NCBI RefSeq assembly: GCF_048403405.1
Contig: NZ_CP183129.1
Length of the DNA: 64,000 bases
Source of the DNA: Escherichia coli
GTDB lineage: Bacteria > Pseudomonadota > Gammaproteobacteria > Enterobacterales > Enterobacteriaceae
Direction: 5' to 3' (one strand)
The position numbers were made by a program, and so were the translations under genes. The notes under the pieces are model-generated. The model saw nothing but the letters and a program-made list of their open reading frames with translations. It had not been told where the DNA came from and did not search any database. Positions 10 through 51,925 of the stretch are shown here, piece after piece (position 1 is the stretch's first letter; each line of letters starts with the position of its first letter).

Positions 10-129
10 ATGCCTGGCAGTTCCCTACTCTCGCATGGGGAGACCCCACACTACCATCGGCGCTACGGCGTTTCACTTCTGAGTTCGGCATGGGGTCAGG
101 TGGGACCACCGCGCTAAGGCCGCCAGGCA
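10..129 (-). rRNA. rrfB: 5S ribosomal RNA (rrnB operon)
   Basis: Reverse complement matches the E. coli 5S sequence end to end (TGCCTGGCGGCC...CTGCCAGGCAT), 120 nt. Confidence 0.95.
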
Positions 130-221
130 AATTCTGTTTCATCAGACCGCTTCTGCGTTCTGAGTTAATCTGTATCAGGCTGAAAATCTTCTCTCATCCG
201 CCAAAACATCTTCGGCGTTGT

Positions 222-3125
<2,904 letters not shown>

Positions 3126-3318
3126 TCACAACCCGAAGATGTTTCTTTCGATTCATCATCGTGTTGCGAAAATTTGAGAGACTCACGAACAACTTTCGTT
3201 GTTCAGTGTTTCAATTTTCAGCTTGATCCAGATTTTTAAAGAGCAAATATCTCAAACGTCACCCGAAGATGAGTTTTGAGATATTAAGGCAGGTGACTTT
3301 CACTCACAAACCAGCAAG

Positions 3319-3394
3319 TGGCGTCCCCTAGGGGATTCGAACCCCTGTTACCGCCGTGAAAGGGCGGTGTCCTGGGCCTCTAGACGAAGGGGAC
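3319..3394 (-). tRNA. gltT: tRNA-Glu (UUC) in the 16S-23S spacer
   Basis: Reverse complement reads GTCCCCTTCGTCTAGAGGCCCAGGACACCGCCCTTTCACGGCGGTAACAGGGGTTCGAATCCCCTAGGGGACGCCA, the canonical E. coli tRNA-Glu with encoded CCA. Confidence 0.95.
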
Positions 3395-3479
3395 GTATCA
3401 GTCTGCTTCGCAAGACGCCTTGCTTTTCACTTTCTATCAGACAATCTGTGTGAGCACTGCAAAGAACGCTTCTTTAAGG

Positions 3480-5021
<1,542 letters not shown>

Positions 5022-5393: not shown

Positions 5394-6263
5394 TCAGTCT
5401 AAAACTGCCAGTTTTTCGAGCGTTTCGAAGCCGTAACGCTGTAAAACGGGCAATAATTGTTCAGCTTCTGGCGTCATTGCCATACAAAAGGCAATATTCG
5501 CATCGGCAGATTTTGCATCCGGGGCTTCATGCTCTAGCAACCAGGCCGTTCGGCGAGCAATCGCTGCGCCAGAATCCACCAGCCGGGTTCCCTCTGGCAG
5601 CACCTGTAACAGTTCTTCTTGTAGTAGAGGGAAATGGGTACACCCCAGTACAACGGTATCTGGCGGCTCTTTCATTCTTAACCACGGACGCAAGATACGT
5701 TTTAGCGCATCCAGAGAAACATCTTCGCCATGCAGCTTCGCTTCAGCCAACTCAACCATCTCTGCCGAGCCCAGCATTTCTATCTGGCATTCATTAGCGA
5801 AACGCGCGATCAGCTCATGAGTATAAGAACGTTTAACTGTTCCGCGGGTTGCCAGTAATCCGACAATGCCATTTGCCGTCAGACGTGCAGCAGGTTTAAT
5901 CGCCGGCACGACACCAACAACCGGGAAGTCGAACTTTTCGCGTAATGCAGGAAGTGAAACGGTACTGGCAGTGTTGCAAGCGACCACAGCCAGCGCAAGG
6001 GGATAACGTTTTTGCACTGCGGTGATAATTGCCACCACTCGCTCAACAATAAACGCTTCGCTTTTTTCGCCATACGGGAAAGCGACGTTATCGAAAGCAT
6101 AAATGTAATGGAGATCCGGTAAGAGATGCCGGATCTCGTCATAGACCGACAACCCACCGACGCCGGAGTCAAACACCAGCACGGTGGGACGTGGTTCAGA
6201 AGGTGTAGCTGCCAGACAAGGTGTATTCCCGTCCTGCAGTTTGGTAGCCATAGACTGTCTCAT
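5394..6263 (-). CDS. murI: glutamate racemase
   Basis: 289-aa ORF with the MurI sequence (…[15 protein letters not shown]…); sits immediately upstream of the rrn operon as in K-12. Confidence 0.9.
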
Positions 6264-8039
6264 AATCTTTGTCGAACAGGTTGGCTATTTTACCACGAAC
6301 TGTCAGGTGAGAGGTGACCGGATACGCAACCGCAAGATCCCACAAGCTCACACCACCCATTTTAACGGTTTGATAAGGATAAGATGAGTAATCCTTATCA
6401 TAGCGAGTGCCTAAATACTGATAAGTAATACCCCAGTCGAAGTCATACAACTGCCAGTCGAGCTGGTATTTCACCTGCTGTTTAGCACGGCGTAACAACG
6501 GCGTGTCAGTAATCGCATTGCGCGCATCGACATAATCATAACTCACAGTATGCGTCAGTGGTCCGGTATCAAAATTGGCGGTCGCCTCGACGCCCTTAAT
6601 CCGCGCTTTCCCTTCGTTGTAATATTTCAGGGTGTGATCATCATAATCGATCAAATCACTGACATCGTTACGATATCCGGAAATACGCCAGTTCACCCCA
6701 GCGGTTAAGCCTTCAAACGCGCCTTCCCACTGTTTGCTTTTCTCAGGATTCAGATTCGGATTTCCGTAGAAACCATACAGTTGCCCAAGATTAGGTGCCT
6801 TGTACGACGTGCCATAAGAAGCGATAAAACGATAGCCTTCGATGAATTCCCAACCGGCACTCGTTTGCCAGGTTCCATGACGACCAAACTGTGAGTTATC
6901 GTCGCTGCGGGCTGCGCCTTCAAACGTAAAATCGCCGACTTGTTGCAGCCCAGTCAGATAGATGCCGGTATTACGTTGATCATATCCATCCTTAACATAA
7001 GCTGTGCCCGGTGCCGTGCTCTGCTTCTGCCAGTCAACGCCCGCACCAATATTACCGTGGCCAACGGTAACGTTATTTGCCCACTGGACGGTGTACTGCT
7101 TCATCTCATCCAGCGTCGCGGACGAATCATAACGGCCATAATGGGGATCGTAGTTGTAATCTTTGCTATGGCTATAGCTGGTAATGAGTTGTGATTTAAT
7201 CAGTTCACCGTTATAGCGCAGCCCGGCGTCCCAACTTTGGCTATAGAGTTTACGGGTATCGAGCAACGGTGAGCCGGGAGAATAATACGCGTCATAATTG
7301 GTACGGTTATCATAGCCATAGCCGCGCACAAAGCCGCTCCAGGCATCAGTAAAGTTATGCTCCAGCGCGCCATAAAGCGTTTTACTTAAAAAACCATCGT
7401 TATCTGTCTGCGCTTGCGTTCCGGTATTCCCATAGGCAACAACATCATAACCATGAGTATGGGCATAATCGCCCAACAGCGTTACCCGTGTCTTATCCCC
7501 CAGTTGTTGCTGCGTGGAGACATCATAGTTCTGATAACTATTGCTTCCCCACCCTGCTGAAATTTCCGTTCCGGGTTCATCGCGCGTCGTGATGATATTC
7601 ACCACCCCGCCTATTGCATCGGAACCATAAACAGCGGAGCGCGGTCCACGGATATATTCAATACCTGGACAAGCGCAATAGGGAACTGGCTAAGGTCGGC
7701 AGAACCACTCACTCCCGCCAGATTCAGGCGGACGCCATCAATTAACACCAGCACATGACTGGCATTTGTACCGCGAATAAAAATAGATGAGAGCTGACCT
7801 GAACCGCCGTTTTGGGTGATATCGACACCCGGAAGACGGCGCAGAACATCATTGACTGAGGTCGACTGCCAGCGGTCAATATCCTGACGCGTCACAACGG
7901 TGGTTGGTGCAAGCACAGTGCTGCGCGGCTGTTCAAAACGGTTAGCAGTAACAACGAGAGTATCCGGGCTGGTATCCTGTGCCCAAGCGGAAAAGGCTGT
8001 GACGGAAAACGCCGTCAGCAGCGAAGCTTTTTTAATCAT
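6196..8039 (-). pseudogene. btuB: vitamin B12/colicin/phage BF23 outer-membrane receptor BtuB, disrupted by a frameshift near 7660
   Basis: Two minus-strand ORFs in different frames (7611..8084, 157 aa; 6196..7605, 469 aa) together cover BtuB. The first ends …[27 protein letters not shown] where BtuB, as I recall it, continues …[34 protein letters not shown]…; the downstream frame encodes [32 protein letters not shown]…. True start is the internal MIKKASLL at 8039. Confidence 0.8.
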
Positions 8040-8044
8040 TGTAA

Positions 8045-8285
8045 AGCATCCACAATAGAAGAAGGATGCCGCAGGTTTCATCAATATTACGCGATGATGA
8101 GAACCAGATGCGACGTTAGCCGGCAGGTCTTCGGGCTTGGAGGGGTATCTAAGATACTAAGAGATGATGACTTCCCACCGGATGGCAGTGTCCGCATAAC
8201 GCAATCATCGCACCTTTCCTTACCGCTGCGCGTCAGCTCCAGATTTGCACTGGATTCCCTATTAACTCACAGGACCGGCGAGTGG
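8045..8285 (-). promoter_or_regulatory. cobalamin (B12) riboswitch in the btuB 5' leader
   Basis: Reverse complement of 8040-8290 matches the remembered btuB leader (…GCCGGUCCUGUGAGUUAAUAGGGAAUCCAGUGCGAAUCUGGAGCUGACGCGCAGCGGUAAGG…); the plus-strand ORF 8094..8333 here is spurious. Confidence 0.8.
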
Positions 8286-8407
8286 ATGCTACAGGTTGTA
8301 ACAAGTTACTGTCCAGACTTAGCTCACAAATAGGAATACATCAAGATCTGGACATCTGATGAGCAATCCCTACAATCGCCGCGTACTTTAATTTTTCAGG
8401 ATACATC

Positions 8408-9508
8408 ATGACCCCCGAACACCTTCCAACAGAACAGTATGAAGCGCAGTTAGCCGAAAAAGTGGTACGTTTGCAAAGTATGATGGCACCGTTTTCTAAC
8501 CTGGTTCCGGAAGTGTTTCGCTCGCCGGTCAGTCATTACCGGATGCGTGCGGAGTTCCGCATCTGGCACGATGGCGATGACCTGTATCACATCATTTTCG
8601 ATCAACAAACCAAAAGCCGCATCCGCGTGGATAGCTTCCCCGCCGCCAGTGAACTTATCAACCAGTTGATGACGGCGATGATTGCGGGTGTGCGTAATAA
8701 TCCCGTTCTGCGCCACAAGTTGTTCCAGATTGATTACCTCACCACGCTGAGTAATCAGGCGGTGGTTTCCCTGCTGTACCATAAGAAGCTGGATGATGAG
8801 TGGCGTCAGGAAGCGGAAGCCCTGCGCGATGCACTGCGAGCGCAGAATCTGAATGTGCATCTGATTGGTCGGGCAACGAAAACCAAAATCGCGCTGGACC
8901 AGGATTACATCGATGAACGTCTGCCAGTCGCAGGGAAAGAGATGATCTACCGTCAGGTAGAAAACAGCTTTACCCAGCCGAACGCGGCGATGAATATTCA
9001 GATGCTGGAATGGGCGCTGGACGTCACCAAAGGCTCAAAAGGCGATTTACTGGAGCTGTACTGCGGCAACGGTAACTTTTCATTAGCACTGGCGCGCAAT
9101 TTTGATCGGGTATTAGCCACCGAAATCGCTAAGCCGTCGGTCGCTGCCGCGCAATACAACATTGCCGCTAACCATATTGATAACGTACAAATTATTCGTA
9201 TGGCGGCAGAAGAATTTACTCAGGCGATGAATGGCGTACGCGAGTTTAACCGCCTGCAAGGGATCGATTTAAAGAGTTATCAGTGCGAAACCATTTTTGT
9301 CGACCCACCACGCAGCGGTCTGGACGGTGAAACCGAGAAAATGGTGCAGGCGTATCCACGTATTCTGTATATCTCCTGCAATCCGGAAACGTTATGCAAG
9401 AATCTGGAAACATTAAGTCAGACGCACAAGGTCGAACGTCTGGCTCTGTTTGATCAGTTCCCCTACACGCACCATATGGAATGCGGCGTATTACTGACCG
9501 CGAAGTAA
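8408..9508 (+). CDS. trmA: tRNA (uracil54-C5)-methyltransferase
   Basis: 366-aa [22 protein letters not shown]…; SAM-methyltransferase motifs; K-12 synteny. Confidence 0.9.
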
Positions 9509-39249: not shown

Positions 39250-40803
39250 TTACTTGATATCTTTCACGCGCATACCGTTGATCTGTTCATCCGTGATGGT
39301 GTTACCCGCTTTGAAGTAATCAACCACGGCGTGATAAACGTAATAACCGCCCGTTGTGTTACGCGCTTTCCCTTCGGTAAAGGCGGTAAAACCATCTCCA
39401 CCATCAGCAAGGAAACTCTGAGTAGCAATGTGGTAAATCGTCGCATCTTCAATGGGTTTGCCATTCAGAGTCAGCGTGATTACCCGCTGACCAACCGGCT
39501 TACTGCTGTCGTACTTCATTTCCAGGCCTTTCGATACCTGTAAAACGCCATTACTTAAACTTGCGCCGTGTTCCATCAAACTGCGTAATTGTTTACCCGT
39601 GAGATCCATCGTCACCAGTTCGTTGGGAAACGGGAAGGTACTGATGACGCCGCCCATCGTAATCGCCCCTGCGGGGATCTCATTGCGAATGCCGCCAGAG
39701 TTGGTTAACGCCAATTGGGTGTTTTTACCCGCCGCTACCAGTAAAGCATCAGCCGCCAGGTTCCCGAGGGAAGCCGATTCACCATAGGCACGTTTTAATT
39801 CAACCGGCGATTTCGCGACCGTTTGTTGCACCACTTCATCAAGCTTTTTATTCCAGCCGTCGATCACCTGTTTTGTTTGCGGATCGGGCTTCCACTCGTC
39901 GGCGTAAATGGTTTTAAGCTCGAAGTTTTTCACCGTAAAATCATGCGGCTTCTCTTTGTAGTCGAGAACCAGTTTGCCCACATCAATCCCGCCGCTGTCA
40001 GTGGAGAGGATGAGCGTATTGCCGACTTTAATCGGTTCCGGCGTACCCACATGCGCATGTCCGGTGATCAAAATATCCAGCCCTTTCACCTGACTTGCCG
40101 TCTGAATATCTTTATCCAGCGCGCGACGCACATCTGTGCCTCCCATACTGGACTGGCGGGCCGGAACACCTTCATGGATCAGGGCGACGGTCAAATCAAC
40201 CTTGCCTTTAAGTTCATCGATATAACGTTGTAGCCATTTAATTTCATCACGCGCTTCAATCCCCACTCGCGTTGCCGCAGATACCGTGTCATTAAAGGCA
40301 AATACACCGTGCAAACCTATAACGCCTATTTTCACGCCGTCTTTTTCGATGATGGTATATGGCTTATCCCAGAATGATTTACTGCTGTTCTGATAAAAAA
40401 CATTGCCCTGCACAATAGGGAATTTTGCCTGACTCAACTGTAATAATGTGTTGTCCCAGCCGTGGTCAAATTCATGGTTGCCTATCGTGACGGCATCAAA
40501 CGGCATAGTATTCATAATATCGATAATAGCCTTACCTTTGGTCAGGCTGCTGATATATGGCCCGGTAAAATAATCACCCGCATCAAAAAACCATGTCGCT
40601 TTATTTTTTGCTTTTTCTTGCTTAACCAGCGTAGTGATATTTGCCCAGCCGCCAATATCCCGTTTACCATCAGCGATCCACGGCACTTTATAAGGCTCGA
40701 CATGCGCATGGAGGTCGTTGGTATAAATGATGGTGACATCTTTGGCGCAAGCCCAAAACGGCAGTGTTAATGCGATACCCGCAGCAAGTATTTTAATTTT
40801 CAT
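39250..40803 (-). CDS. predicted secreted bifunctional metallophosphatase/5'-nucleotidase (UshA/CpdB family); strain-specific accessory gene
   Basis: 517-aa ORF with a signal peptide ([20 protein letters not shown]) and calcineurin-type metallophosphatase motifs (NDLHAH, GDYFTG, GNHEFD, GHAH) followed by a 5'-nucleotidase C-terminal-like domain. K-12, as I recall it, has no gene between metL and metF. Confidence 0.8.
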
Positions 40804-40935
40804 AAACAGTCCCTTTCAGTGAGATAAAGGATTGCTACATTACGTTCTGAAAGAGTTATTTATGTGAGAGTAATCACATCCACAGGGGAGCGTTGCCGGA
40901 CAAAATCAACGACCATGTGAAATCGTTGGTGATAT

Positions 40936-42066
40936 ATGTCGACTCTGTTTACGATTAATGCCTGCAAGTCGTTTGGTTGCCGTAATTTAGGGCAGCCAAC
41001 ATCTAAAGATTATAGCTGGCCCGACTATCGGCTGGGTTATCCGGCATTGCACTGTCGGGCATGTGGCAGTTACCCGCCGTTGTTTGACGAGCAACAATTT
41101 CGTGACTGGTTGTCAGTTCACTTATCTACTTTTGCAACAGAGAAAGGCCATTTTTGCCCGGTATGTTATGGCACAAAGACGATTTGTTATGGCCACAATC
41201 CACAGGGGTCGCAACGCATTCAATGTCGTAACTGCAAAAAAGTCTGGACACCTAAACAATATCAGAAAGAAATAACGCCTCCTGAAATAATCGAAACGGT
41301 TGCTCTTCTGGTGCCATTTCAGGGAGCCAGCAATGGGCAGAAACTGTATGTTTTAATCAGTTTTGATGCTCTTCGCGGTAATATTCTTCATCTTTCTACT
41401 AATTACACGCAGCATCAGGCTGGAGAAAGTCTGCATTATCGATACAGAGGGAATGCAGAACCAGAGTTACACGAGAGTAATATTGTACAACGCGTTGATA
41501 TGCGCGAAGCACAATTTCTACGCCGCAGTCAGTTTGATGAAATTCAGTATGGCAGCGCAGCGCTCAAACGCAATGCTAAAGGTGTTATTCTGCGTCCGGT
41601 TATCACTGCACACGGGCATTTCAGAGTACTGAATATTTTATTCCCTACAGTAAAAACACATGTAATTTCACACGAGTGTTTTTTAAGAGGTGCGATTATT
41701 ACGGCCTGGGCAGAACTGTTTCGCCAACAGCAAGGTGAGATTTGGTTTATTGAAGAGGAAATAGCTGACTATACCGATAATACGCCCTGGCGTTTTCAGG
41801 GAAAAACTTATCACGGCTGGTGGAAAAATCAGTGGCAACTCTGGGTTCAGGGCAAAAATCGTAAAATGGTATGTGCATTAACGGGCGGAAATATCAGCAA
41901 AGCTGAAATGCTCTCTTTAGCAACCAGCAGACATTTTATCGACTGGCTACATAAACAAGCAGTATTTACTCACAGCGCCCCGCTTTCCGCAGGGCGCGTT
42001 ACGCAAATACTGCTTTCTCTGGCTCAGGATTACAACAACTGCGCCAGGCGGTTAATATCCGACTGA
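40936..42066 (+). CDS. hypothetical protein with two N-terminal CxxC zinc ribbons, the second resembling the IS1 InsA zinc ribbon; strain-specific accessory gene
   Basis: 376-aa ORF; motifs CKSFGC…HCRACG and CPVCYGTKTICYGHNPQGSQRIQCRNCKKVWT (compare the InsA copy in this window, CPRCQSVQVYRHGQNPKRHDRFRGRDCHRVFQ). The remaining ~270 aa match nothing I recognise. The 3' end overlaps the metL stop convergently by 37 bp. Confidence 0.55.
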   Translation: MSTLFTINACKSFGCRNLGQPTSKDYSWPDYRLGYPALHCRACGSYPPLFDEQQFRDWLSVHLSTFATEKGHFCPVCYGTKTICYGHNPQGSQRIQCRNCKKVWTPKQYQKEITPPEIIETVALLVPFQGASNGQKLYVLISFDALRGNILHLSTNYTQHQAGESLHYRYRGNAEPELHESNIVQRVDMREAQFLRRSQFDEIQYGSAALKRNAKGVILRPVITAHGHFRVLNILFPTVKTHVISHECFLRGAIITAWAELFRQQQGEIWFIEEEIADYTDNTPWRFQGKTYHGWWKNQWQLWVQGKNRKMVCALTGGNISKAEMLSLATSRHFIDWLHKQAVFTHSAPLSAGRVTQILLSLAQDYNNCARRLISD

Positions 42067-47793: not shown

Positions 47794-48117
47794 TTACCTC
47801 ATTCTGCTCTTTTTTCTCAAATGACATATATTATATTTTACATCATATTCATAGGTATATGACATTCCCCCGCCCCCCATTATGTCATTGTGGGTTGATG
47901 TTGGGCTTTCATAAAAAAATACATCTTTTTTTGAACTAGCATTAATTATATTTACTTTATATATTAAAATATTTTCTCCATCTGGAAATATTTTAGCCAC
48001 ACAATATAAAGCAGCTAAATCCGAATTACTTAAAAATATATTGTCATCACTCATAACTCCAGCCATTAAATGACTGGAGACTAAAGCAAGGAAATAACAA
48101 CATTGTATTGCCTTCAT
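47794..48117 (-). CDS. putative immunity protein for the orphan Rhs C-terminal toxin
   Basis: Small AT-rich ORF starting one nucleotide after the orphan toxin stop (TAA-A-ATG, with GGGAG upstream); predicted start MKAIQCCYFLALVSSHLMAG is signal-peptide-like. Assigned by position only. Confidence 0.5.
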   Translation of the reverse strand: MKAIQCCYFLALVSSHLMAGVMSDDNIFLSNSDLAALYCVAKIFPDGENILIYKVNIINASSKKDVFFYESPTSTHNDIMGGGGMSYTYEYDVKYNICHLRKKSRMR

Positions 48118-48118
48118 T

Positions 48119-49378
48119 TTAATTACTCCCTTGCCTGATAATTGCAACTCCATTCCCTTTAGCTTTGGGATTATATTTTAGATAGGTGTTATTTGGTGTT
48201 CCCAAGTAACTACTGTATTCTTTTTTTCCCATTCCATTCATATAAGAATTCGTTAAATCTTTGCTTGAAAAATTTAGACTATCATAAACATCATTTTCTT
48301 TTGTTACTTTATTTCCTTTATCGTCAGAGTAAAAACCGTGAGTGTGATAATCACCTACTCTCTCTGAACCTTCAGGGCATTTTATATTTCGCAAGTCTAC
48401 ACTATCATTATCATTTGAACTTATCGGATTCATAGGGAAATATTCACCTTGCTTCTTACATATTAGTCCACCATATTCTTTATTCTTGTTAATTGATTCT
48501 CCATTACACATTGCCAATGCAAATATTCCAATATCATCTATATTTTTTGATTTAAATTCATATAATCCTAATGGATCCATGCCATTCACCGGGCTCAGCG
48601 GATATGTATACAGGTTCCATCCCCCCTTCAGCCCAATCGGATCCTGAGTGATATACCGCCCCTGCAGCGGGTCATAATAGCGGTGGCGGTTGTAATACAG
48701 GCCGGACTCCTCATCATACTGCTGACCCGGCAGGCGGATGAGCTGCTGCAGCTGATGCGGGTTCTCTTCATTCAGCTGGTTACCCCATTCATCGTATTCT
48801 GCGCACCATTCTGTTGCCCCTTCCGTGCTGACAAGCGCCAGCGGCAGGCCGCGATGGTCGCAGTGGTACAGGTGGATTTTTCGCGCCGGCGTGTACACCG
48901 GGTCCATCTGGTTTTGTATCTGCTCCACCGTCAGGCCGCACGATGCCAGCCAGCGGCGGCTTTCCTCGCTCACCCGGTCAGCCAGGATTTCACTTTCCAG
49001 CCGGTCGAGCATCTGCACCAGCACCGGCGGGAACACCACACTGCCACCGTCTTCACCGCCGGACTGCTGAAGCGCATCCGCCAGGCTGCGGCGCTGCGTT
49101 TTCGCCAGCTCACCGGTGGCAGTTTCAACTCTGATGAGTGGCGTGAAGCTCCCCGGCTGATAAACCGTCTGGATGCGGGTTCTGTCGTTCTGTATTGTGG
49201 TCAGCCGGTCGCCGTCCCAGCCGTACCAGGTCACTTCCGGTTTCCATGACAGCGACATCCAGCCCGTCAGGTCCCGTTCACGCCGCCATACCCGTTTTGC
49301 CACCCTGCGGCCCAGCAGGTCGTAAAGATAGCGACTTTCGACCAGCGGCTCTGCATATTGTGTCCGCGTGTAGTGCAC
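48119..49378 (-). CDS. orphan Rhs C-terminal module (core-end fragment plus alternative toxin tip)
   Basis: 419-aa ORF that begins inside rhs core sequence (…[30 protein letters not shown]…), passes the DPLGL demarcation and ends in an AT-rich unique tip (…[16 protein letters not shown]…). The track start is a GTG; core homology continues upstream to about 49620 with no ribosome-binding context. Confidence 0.85.
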
Positions 49379-49612
49379 CAGCCGGTGCCGGCTGTCGTAA
49401 TGGTACCGGTGAGTCCGCTCATCATCCGTGCGGATAACCCCTTCCGGGATGAGGTCGGTTTTCTCCGTCAGCCTGCCGTGACGGTCATACCGGTAAAGAT
49501 AGTGCGCGTCACGGGCGATACGGTTATCCGGCCATGCGCTGAGGGGGCTGTCCGGGTGCAGCTCCGGGTCGGGCAGGCGGTTGCCTGCCGGGTCCGTGGC
49601 ATACGGGATATC
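48612..49612. repeat. roughly 1 kb rhs core-end direct repeat (orphan copy)
   Basis: Near-identical to 52940..53940 (offset 4328 bp; only scattered mismatches by eye). Confidence 0.9.
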
Positions 49613-49654
49613 AATGCCCAGGTTACATATAATAATAAGAGCAATTAACTTAAT

Positions 49655-49981
49655 TTATTTGTTTATAATGCGCTTACTTAATACAAACCATTGAATATAC
49701 CCTCCTGACAGAAAATAAAGCCATATTATTATCGCCATAATATACTTACTATCAATCCTTACGCCAATAATGTCTGAAACAGTCCCTATAAATATTAGAG
49801 CAATAAAGAATACTATGCCTGTTGGAAAACAGATTACCATCATTCCATAAGACATGAGACTAATTAACTCGCTCACATCACGAGTGGAGTCTAATAGTGA
49901 AAGTCTATGCATGGAAAAGAATAGTATTAAAAGCGATAAAGCCAGCCATATAGCTCTGAATAAAAAAATAATATATTTCAT
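49655..49981 (-). CDS. small hypothetical membrane protein with three predicted TM helices
   Basis: 108-aa AT-rich ORF MKYIIFLFRAIWLALSLLILFF… inside the rhs island; function unknown. Confidence 0.45.
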   Translation of the reverse strand: MKYIIFLFRAIWLALSLLILFFSMHRLSLLDSTRDVSELISLMSYGMMVICFPTGIVFFIALIFIGTVSDIIGVRIDSKYIMAIIIWLYFLSGGYIQWFVLSKRIINK

Positions 49982-50085
49982 TACATCACTCCGGTGAATA
50001 CAAATCTAATAAAGCGTCCAATGTTATTTCCGGAGCACTTCATCTTACATGTTTCTAAAGAATCATTAGACCAGTCAGGGCAAGA

Positions 50086-51221
50086 TTACGAAAGCCCGCT
50101 CCCCGCAAGGACTGACGCGAGATAGTTTCTGTCCATGGCTGCTTTTCGCATCTTACGTCTTAACCCTGCCTTGAATACCTTATCATTCGTCAAAATATTA
50201 ATAGCAATGTGCCGTATCCCTGAAAATAATTCTGCTGCGTTTCCTCTTCTTATTTTGCAGTCGTCTTCATTCATTACCACGTCCAGACGCCAGTGCAGCT
50301 TATTCTCCACGTGCCAGTGGTTTCGGATTGCTGTGGCGAACTTCTCAGCGGTTAAATCAGCAGAGCTGATATAATATCTGACCGTCATTTCTGGCTCTTT
50401 CTTTTGTTCTGCTATTATTGACCGAAAGGAGACTGCCACGTATAATTTTTCAGTCCTTTCCATTCAAATGTAAAATCAATAAGTTCATCAGGGACATCGC
50501 AAACAATATGAAGACGGATTTCTTCTCTGCCGTGACTCTTTTCACTAATTGCGTAACTGTCATGCTCTGGATTAATTAATTCTTTCAGCGGAAATGTTTC
50601 CTCAAAGGCTTTATTCAGCCGCCCCTGGTTTCCTTTTACAGCGAATAAGTAATCACCACCCTGTTTTTGTATCTTCTCTGCAATATCTTTCTGGCAACCC
50701 ATCGCATCAGTTGTGATGATTTTCTCTTTAATATACAAAATGTTAAGAAGTTCAGGGATAGCTGTGATCTCATTAGATTTCTCATCCGTCCTGATCTGCC
50801 CCAGGACCAGAATGTGCATTGTTGAGAACGCACTAATGACATGAATCGCTCCCCTGCGGCGACTCTTGTCATAAGAATGCCGGAGTGTTTTTCCATCAAT
50901 TGCGATGACGTCTTTATCATCTGAAGTATGGCAATCTCGCATCCAGTTAATAAAGCACTCGTGAAATTTTGCAGGACTGATACAGGATACAACTCTGGCG
51001 ATGGTATCGTGAACAGGAATACCATTTTCAAAATCACCGTATTGTTTTAAAAAATCGAGATGTGTTTCCCCAAAATCCTCTATATCTTCCCAACCTTCTG
51101 CACCCGAAATAACGGCACAAATAGTCAACAGTAGAATATCCGATAATTTATGTTCCACTTTCCAGGCTTGTCTGTAATCGGGGATAATAGAAATATGCTC
51201 CATCAATTTTTTAAGTTCCAT
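50086..51221 (-). pseudogene. H-repeat-associated (ISAs1-family) transposase, split by a frameshift
   Basis: ORFs 50415..51221 (268 aa, [51 protein letters not shown]…) and 50086..50463 (125 aa, …[32 protein letters not shown]…) overlap in different frames and together resemble the roughly 378-aa K-12 H-rpt proteins. Confidence 0.7.
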
Positions 51222-51755
51222 TTTGTTCTCCTTAATTATGTAAGGAGTATTTGATCATGTATAAGCAATAAAAAACAGCTTTAGGTAATGAGGAATATCT
51301 CAATTTTCAAACATAAAATGCGAATTATTTAGTACAAAAAAGCAGCGTTACGTGATCTTTCCCTGGCATGTCATTAGATGAACCAGTTATACAACCCTCG
51401 GAACAGAATCGAGGTCCTAAAGACGGACCAAAAGCGTTTAAACAACTATGTATTGAAAATCCATTACGATTATAAGTTCCTGTATTAACTGACGGTACTA
51501 ATCGTATGCCGTCAGGTTTTCTATTGCTTGCTCCCGGGTCATTAACATTCCAACTCCATAGGCCTTGAGGTATTGGCCCTCTATTTATAAATGTGTACAA
51601 CGGGGATTATTTTTACATTGCATATTATTACCAGAAGCGACTGGAATACTAAGCACATCATAAAAATTATCATCACCTGGTATATCTGAAACACACGAAA
51701 GCATACCTAAAGTTATGCTGTATAAACAGGTGGCTAATCCCAAGGGGATCGATTC

Positions 51756-51925
51756 CAGAAATCGGGTTCAACGGATACTGATAAAAATTCCACCTACCTT
51801 CCAGCCCAATCGGAGCCTGAGTGTTATACCGCCCCTGCTGCGGTTAATGTTACCGATAATAGTTATAGTACAGCCCTGATTCATCATCATACTACTGCTG
51901 CGGCAGTCTGATGAATTATTGCTTT
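51756..51925. repeat. degenerate third copy of the rhs core-end segment
   Basis: CAACGGATACTGATAAAAATTCCACCTACCTTCCAGCCCAATCGGAGCCTGAGTGTTATACCGCCCCTG… aligns with the main core end at 52925-53090 with many substitutions and stops. Confidence 0.7.

Follow-up and report, generated by a model that had tools for sequence, protein, structure and literature searches.

The TonB-dependent transporter BtuB takes cobalamins across the outer membrane and doubles as the receptor for colicins E1-E9 and A, for phage BF23 and for other T5-like phages. Work on the loss of this receptor has shown that BtuB is needed for killing by colicin E2, with btuB frameshifts or large insertions present in 8/8 sequenced resistant clones (PMC12094771). 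Under phage selection btuB was the top hit among transposon insertions, and a btuB deletion that spared murI was viable and abolished infection (bioRxiv 10.1101/2025.12.01.691526). A nonsense mutation in btuB has been described in BL21(DE3) (PMC6150544). One survey found btuB to be intact in 2,558 of 2,601 complete genomes (98.4%) (PMC12094771). The present analysis concerns the btuB of a 64 kb stretch of Escherichia coli DNA (hereafter the window), in which the gene is one base shorter than in its closest relatives.

The btuB locus and its missing base

The order of the locus in the window, trmA - RF00174 riboswitch - btuB - murI - rrn operon, is collinear with that in annotated relatives, and the context by which btuB is recognised, conserved neighbours together with a cobalamin riboswitch leader, is present in full. 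The remnant of btuB occupies 6196-8039 on the minus strand and is 1,844 nt long, against 1,845 nt (614 codons plus a stop) in intact orthologues. Its leader contains the cobalamin riboswitch at 8105-8294 (minus strand), which matches Rfam RF00174 over its full length (1-189) with 87.3 bits, the gathering score being 31.5, and which is identical in alignment to the sequence of relatives; the promoter region is untouched by the deletion. Upstream lies trmA (8408-9508), which is divergently transcribed. On the other side is murI (5394-6251, minus strand, coordinates transferred from the annotation of a relative), which encodes the essential glutamate racemase, shares its first 56 nt with the 3' end of btuB and shows no sequence difference from relatives on alignment, and beyond it the rRNA operon 5S-23S-tRNA(Glu)-16S (12-5021). 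A sigma-70-like site at 6424-6397 within btuB is a consensus match only. The premature stop described below precedes the start codon of murI by 1.36 kb and would not be expected to be lethal, since disruptions of btuB are viable (bioRxiv 10.1101/2025.12.01.691526).

A sequence-only reading of the window had proposed that btuB is inactivated by a frameshift near 7660, and the break was found between 7665 and 7664. Base-by-base alignment with the intact btuB of TUM14771 and MS 69-1 gave a single difference in 2,251 bases, namely a C on the coding strand (G on the plus strand) that is missing at this point (ATTGCGCTTGTCCAG-GTATTGAATATATCC vs ...CCAGCGTATT...), the context on the coding strand being ...GCGCTTGTCCAG[C]GTATTGAATAT... 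The gene is otherwise identical to that of 4621, MS 69-1, OX030728 and TUM14771, and no compensating second indel was found in btuB on alignment to relatives. The difference from intact orthologues is deterministic and so raises no question of chance. The base was lost from codon 126 (CGT, Arg), the codon for Arg106 of the mature protein in the numbering of PDB 1NQE. A deletion of 1 nt in the codons for Q-R-V-E had been proposed; the deletion was borne out by the nucleotide alignment, whereas the peptide was not, for the region reads CAG[C]GTATTGAA and the clone encodes Q-R-I-E where K-12 has Q-R-V-E. Similarly the proposed location in the TonB-box/plug region holds for the plug only, the break lying 94-100 codons downstream of the TonB box.

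Both of the elements that precede the plug are intact. The signal peptide takes up codons 1-20 (7980-8039, minus strand), the mature protein of PDB 1NQE beginning at query residue 21, and codons 26-32 (7944-7964, minus strand) read directly as DTLVVTA, which from established knowledge of BtuB we take to be the TonB box. Direct reading also shows that the deleted C, within ...CCAG[C]GTAT..., is part of neither a homopolymer nor a repeat, and that neither a Dam nor a Dcm motif is present there in the intact sequence; loss of the base generates a new Dcm-type site, CCTGG, at 7664-7668. A mutation templated by a quasi-palindrome with the arms GTCCAG...GTGGAC was considered and rejected, as on inspection the complementarity of the arms is not improved by the deletion.

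Distribution and age of the allele

A query of 2,251 bases (6150-8400) found btuB in 5,425 of 5,426 complete E. coli genomes, with the best matches spanning 2,252 bases. When a 61-base query across the deletion junction was used 3,959 complete genomes matched, all of them with a gap and the best at 60/61; an ungapped match to the junction was found in none of the 5,426 genomes and no record matched at a level of at least 99%. The junction was also not found in a representative set of one genome per species or in a set of metagenome contigs, 76 of which contained the intact junction that served as a positive control. Neither the exact 142-aa product nor the exact 469-aa product of the interrupted gene is on record in a large protein/contig collection. 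The allele itself has no precedent in the collections searched, but the kind of lesion is fully known, indeed textbook. In the literature nothing was found under the accession of the nearest relative's genome, and a search on btuB, IS1 and phage resistance in clinical isolates gave no paper tied to the lineage of the window.

Four strains that belong to one tight clone with the window were compared with it over its whole length. Closest among the complete genomes is that of the clinical strain 4621 (blood, Houston), with 3 substitutions and 1 indel, followed by OX030728 (hospital, Spain; 14 substitutions, 1 indel), MS 69-1 (colon, USA; 28 substitutions, 2 indels) and TUM14771 (faeces, Japan; 32 substitutions, 1 indel). 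The substitutions relative to 4621, at window position 3 and at the 16S pair 4932/4943, are all in the rrn operon and the one indel is the btuB deletion; over 64 kb nothing else distinguishes the two in unique sequence. The remaining differences from members of the clone are mostly in the rrn operon or in an Rhs element, with isolated substitutions in unique sequence at 9481, 13250, 41420 (vs TUM14771), 57183 (vs MS 69-1) and 60913 (vs OX030728). The second indel of MS 69-1 is in a T-run at 48543, where MS 69-1 has one T fewer and the window agrees with TUM14771, 4621 and OX030728; the Rhs fragment of MS 69-1 at this point is annotated as 'frameshifted', and on this comparison MS 69-1 is the outlier at the T-run. 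Since btuB has acquired no second lesion and 4621 matches the window almost base for base across 64 kb, the best reading is that the null allele is very recent.

Several other features of the window were recorded in the course of these comparisons. The survey of complete genomes contained 465 (of 5,425) in which identity to the btuB region is only 80-90%, which indicates a divergent class of btuB alleles in the species. Positions 4932 and 4943 (minus strand) of the 16S rRNA gene are G and C in the window and T and A in all four closest genomes; on the rRNA strand the change is between AGCAGC-UU-GCUGCU and AUCAGC-UU-GCUGAU, a compensatory G-C / U-A swap in the V1 hairpin, and it likely reflects heterogeneity between rrn copies, gene conversion or the mixing of copies in assembly. 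The Rhs element (~47800-56633) encodes a core protein of 1,409 aa (52404-56633, minus strand), includes orphan Rhs tips as well as frameshifted ISAs1 and IS1H, and has a 1-kb internal repeat (48599-49609 and 52929-53939) that is 97.5% identical. Differences between clone members cluster within it, at 53719-54767 vs TUM14771 and at 55346-55647 vs MS 69-1, which suggests mosaic gene conversion. Two genes are present between metL and metF (39250-42066), where K-12 is not known to have any. One (39250-40803, minus strand) encodes a 517-aa UshA-like metallophosphatase/5'-nucleotidase, and the other (40936-42066, plus strand) a 376-aa hypothetical protein with a weak IS1-type zinc-finger match only (E 2e-4), its 3' end overlapping that of metL convergently by 37 nt. 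Neither gene was matched by the PADLOC defence models.

Origin of the deletion

Taken together the observations make it probable that the deletion is real, a spontaneous loss of 1 nt in codon 126 that would have given a fresh null allele of btuB. It is somewhat unlikely that such a real deletion arose, or was deliberately selected, in the laboratory (during storage, passage or a phage/colicin experiment) on a clinical isolate resembling 4621. Colicin or phage pressure readily yields null mutants of btuB in rich medium (PMC12094771; bioRxiv 10.1101/2025.12.01.691526), the near-identity of the window to 4621 is as for a derivative or sister isolate, and the genome of the window is absent from the RefSeq complete assemblies compared. 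However, the window contains no markers or scars and natural disruptions of btuB exist, an example being the btuB::IS1 of strain 405 from a wound. Moreover the closest relatives are human clinical or commensal isolates (blood, faeces and colon), so that a natural clone is indicated and the laboratory lesion suggested by the sequence-only reading is not. A laboratory history would in any case concern only the origin of the deletion, and the mechanism of the favoured explanation is compatible with it.

It is quite unlikely that the btuB of the organism is intact and that one base was dropped in consensus calling or polishing. Single-base indels are the commonest residual type of error in long-read assemblies, the allele is unique to one record, with independent confirmation absent from all collections searched, and the base is present in every close relative. 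Natural loss of btuB is also uncommon, the gene being intact in ~98% of complete E. coli genomes (PMC12094771). Set against this is the observation that the deletion is the only indel in 64 kb relative to 4621 and that there are no homopolymer indels in the window, which indicates a low-error assembly. The site itself, being outside any homopolymer or repeat, is not a typical context for long-read consensus errors, and a basecalling error at a homopolymer or a methylation motif was considered and rejected, as neither is present there in the intact sequence, although a CCTGG is made by the deletion itself. Finally, btuB is among the few genes in the window for which positive selection for loss is known (PMC12094771; bioRxiv 10.1101/2025.12.01.691526).

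If the deletion is real, as we consider probable, the resistance phenotype would bear on the choice of phage or bacteriocin therapy, and the allele would mark a very recent split from the near-identical blood isolate 4621 and could be useful in tracing evolution within the clone. It teaches nothing new about the mechanism of BtuB. Decidedly doubtful is the further suggestion that the allele represents adaptive loss of the receptor within a patient by an extraintestinal pathogenic clone. On that view the allele and the btuB::IS1 of strain 405 would both be signs that phages or colicins repeatedly exert pressure on BtuB while the bacteria colonise or infect people, even though the gene is generally conserved.

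Encoded products and known btuB alleles

Translation of 8039-7611 (minus strand) starts with MIKKAS and gives 142 aa, of which 125 are identical to BtuB and are followed by 17 out-of-frame residues and a TAG at 7613-7611. The neighbouring frame from 7665 runs on to the normal BtuB C-terminus, ...SGSYTF, at 6196. Both of the peptide strings quoted in the sequence-only reading are present, in the translations of 8039-7611 and, in the other frame, of 7665-7576 (minus strand). The list of open reading frames accordingly has a 5' ORF ending at 7611 and a 3' ORF of 469 aa at 6196-7605; the out-of-frame remainder as a whole (6196-7663, minus strand) comprises the end of the plug and the entire beta-barrel, its earliest start being a GTG at 7605, without a signal peptide. 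When the frame is repaired the protein matches the BtuB of PDB 1NQE over residues 21-614, and Pfam places the Plug at 41-146 and the beta-barrel at 190-588. The break at residue 126 is thus in the last fifth of the Plug, ahead of the barrel, and the N-terminal fragment stops short of the final ~20 residues of the plug, among them the conserved RGP...GG..N motif. A continuous ORF with signal peptide, TonB box, plug and 22-strand barrel is not present, there being a stop after 142 codons and a barrel that is out of frame. On the NCBIfam BtuB equivalog NF007926 (NF007926 / TIGR01779, curated equivalog cut-off 836 bits) the repaired ORF scores 1112.5 bits, the C-terminal fragment 805.8 bits, under the cut-off, and the N-terminal fragment 223.3 bits, far under it. 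As only the repaired ORF passes, the DNA is btuB, but no encoded product qualifies as BtuB. The gene has the features of a recent pseudogene, its frame being broken relative to the intact orthologues of its closest relatives with neither a recoding signal nor a compensating indel.

That functional BtuB is still made by ribosomal -1 frameshifting, by reinitiation or from a separately made plug and barrel is scarcely credible: some reinitiation is conceivable, the TAG being 5 nt upstream of the in-frame GTG 7605 after a G-rich stretch, but the product from this codon has no signal peptide with which to reach the outer membrane, the plug of the N-terminal fragment is incomplete, and the two frames are open together for only 79 nt (7692-7613), a zone in which no slippery heptamer (X XXY YYZ) was found. 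Programmed -1 frameshifting was rejected on the last of these observations, and reinitiation at GTG 7605 and split plug-barrel assembly on the missing signal peptide and incomplete plug. From the known architecture of TonB-dependent transporters we infer that a restart product with neither signal peptide nor plug could not become an outer-membrane receptor. Judged on its sequence as given, btuB encodes no functional BtuB.

The consequences that follow from a null allele can be set out in order. Translation would begin normally under the intact cobalamin riboswitch and would run through the signal peptide and the TonB box into the plug, of which some four fifths would be made, before 17 wrong residues and the stop. 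With no beta-barrel there would be no BtuB at the outer membrane, high-affinity uptake of cobalamin would presumably be lost, and the cell would be expected to become resistant to the BtuB-dependent colicins E1-E9 and A and to BtuB-dependent phages, that is BF23 and other T5-like siphoviruses. Any strain carrying the allele is therefore predicted to resist E-group colicins and BtuB-dependent phages and to fail to scavenge nanomolar B12. It is also predicted to rely for methionine synthesis on MetE rather than MetH (metE and metH are both located outside the window) and to be impaired at low B12 in cobalamin-dependent pathways, e.g. ethanolamine use. The loss phenotypes anticipated by the sequence-only reading agree with such predictions, with established knowledge of BtuB and with published work (PMC12094771; bioRxiv 10.1101/2025.12.01.691526).

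Comparison with K-12 shows the same locus order, and the repaired protein of the window aligns with the mature protein of the crystal structure (PDB 1NQE) from one end to the other, whereas the window as it stands has one base missing in codon 126 and only 125 native residues. The BtuB of the clone differs from that of K-12 at 8 residues (I127V, T325I, N330S, S341T, A343T, A347G, K350E and N431D). Six of the eight fall in a stretch of 26 residues, precursor residues 325-350, which may form a surface loop subject to diversifying selection.

A btuB allele 99.9% identical to that of the window has been disrupted independently, and naturally, in the related clinical strain 405 (wound, Houston), in which the gene carries an IS1 in two assemblies (NZ_CM132947 / NZ_CM132945). 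The IS1 is at a different position in btuB from the deletion described here and the chromosomal background differs from that of the window. In strain 405 (NZ_CM132947.1; 20362-22983 and 756-3375) btuB is split by IS1 into plug and barrel pseudogenes, and an IS1-flanked blaCMY-42 module is present in pflD. The window is not a sibling of this strain, as the alleles of 405 differ and the insertion of blaCMY-42 in pflD is absent from the window.

The laboratory mutants of btuB selected with colicin E2 or with BtuB-dependent phages, which carry frameshifts or IS insertions, share with the window the gene, the class of lesion and the loss of the receptor (PMC12094771; bioRxiv 10.1101/2025.12.01.691526), but the background of the window is that of a natural human-associated clone. 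The btuB of BL21(DE3) likewise has a point lesion that leaves a truncated, non-functional BtuB in a locus that is otherwise intact (PMC6150544). The two alleles differ in that the one in BL21(DE3) is a nonsense substitution in the B lineage, whereas that of the window has lost 1 nt and belongs to a clinical lineage unrelated to B.
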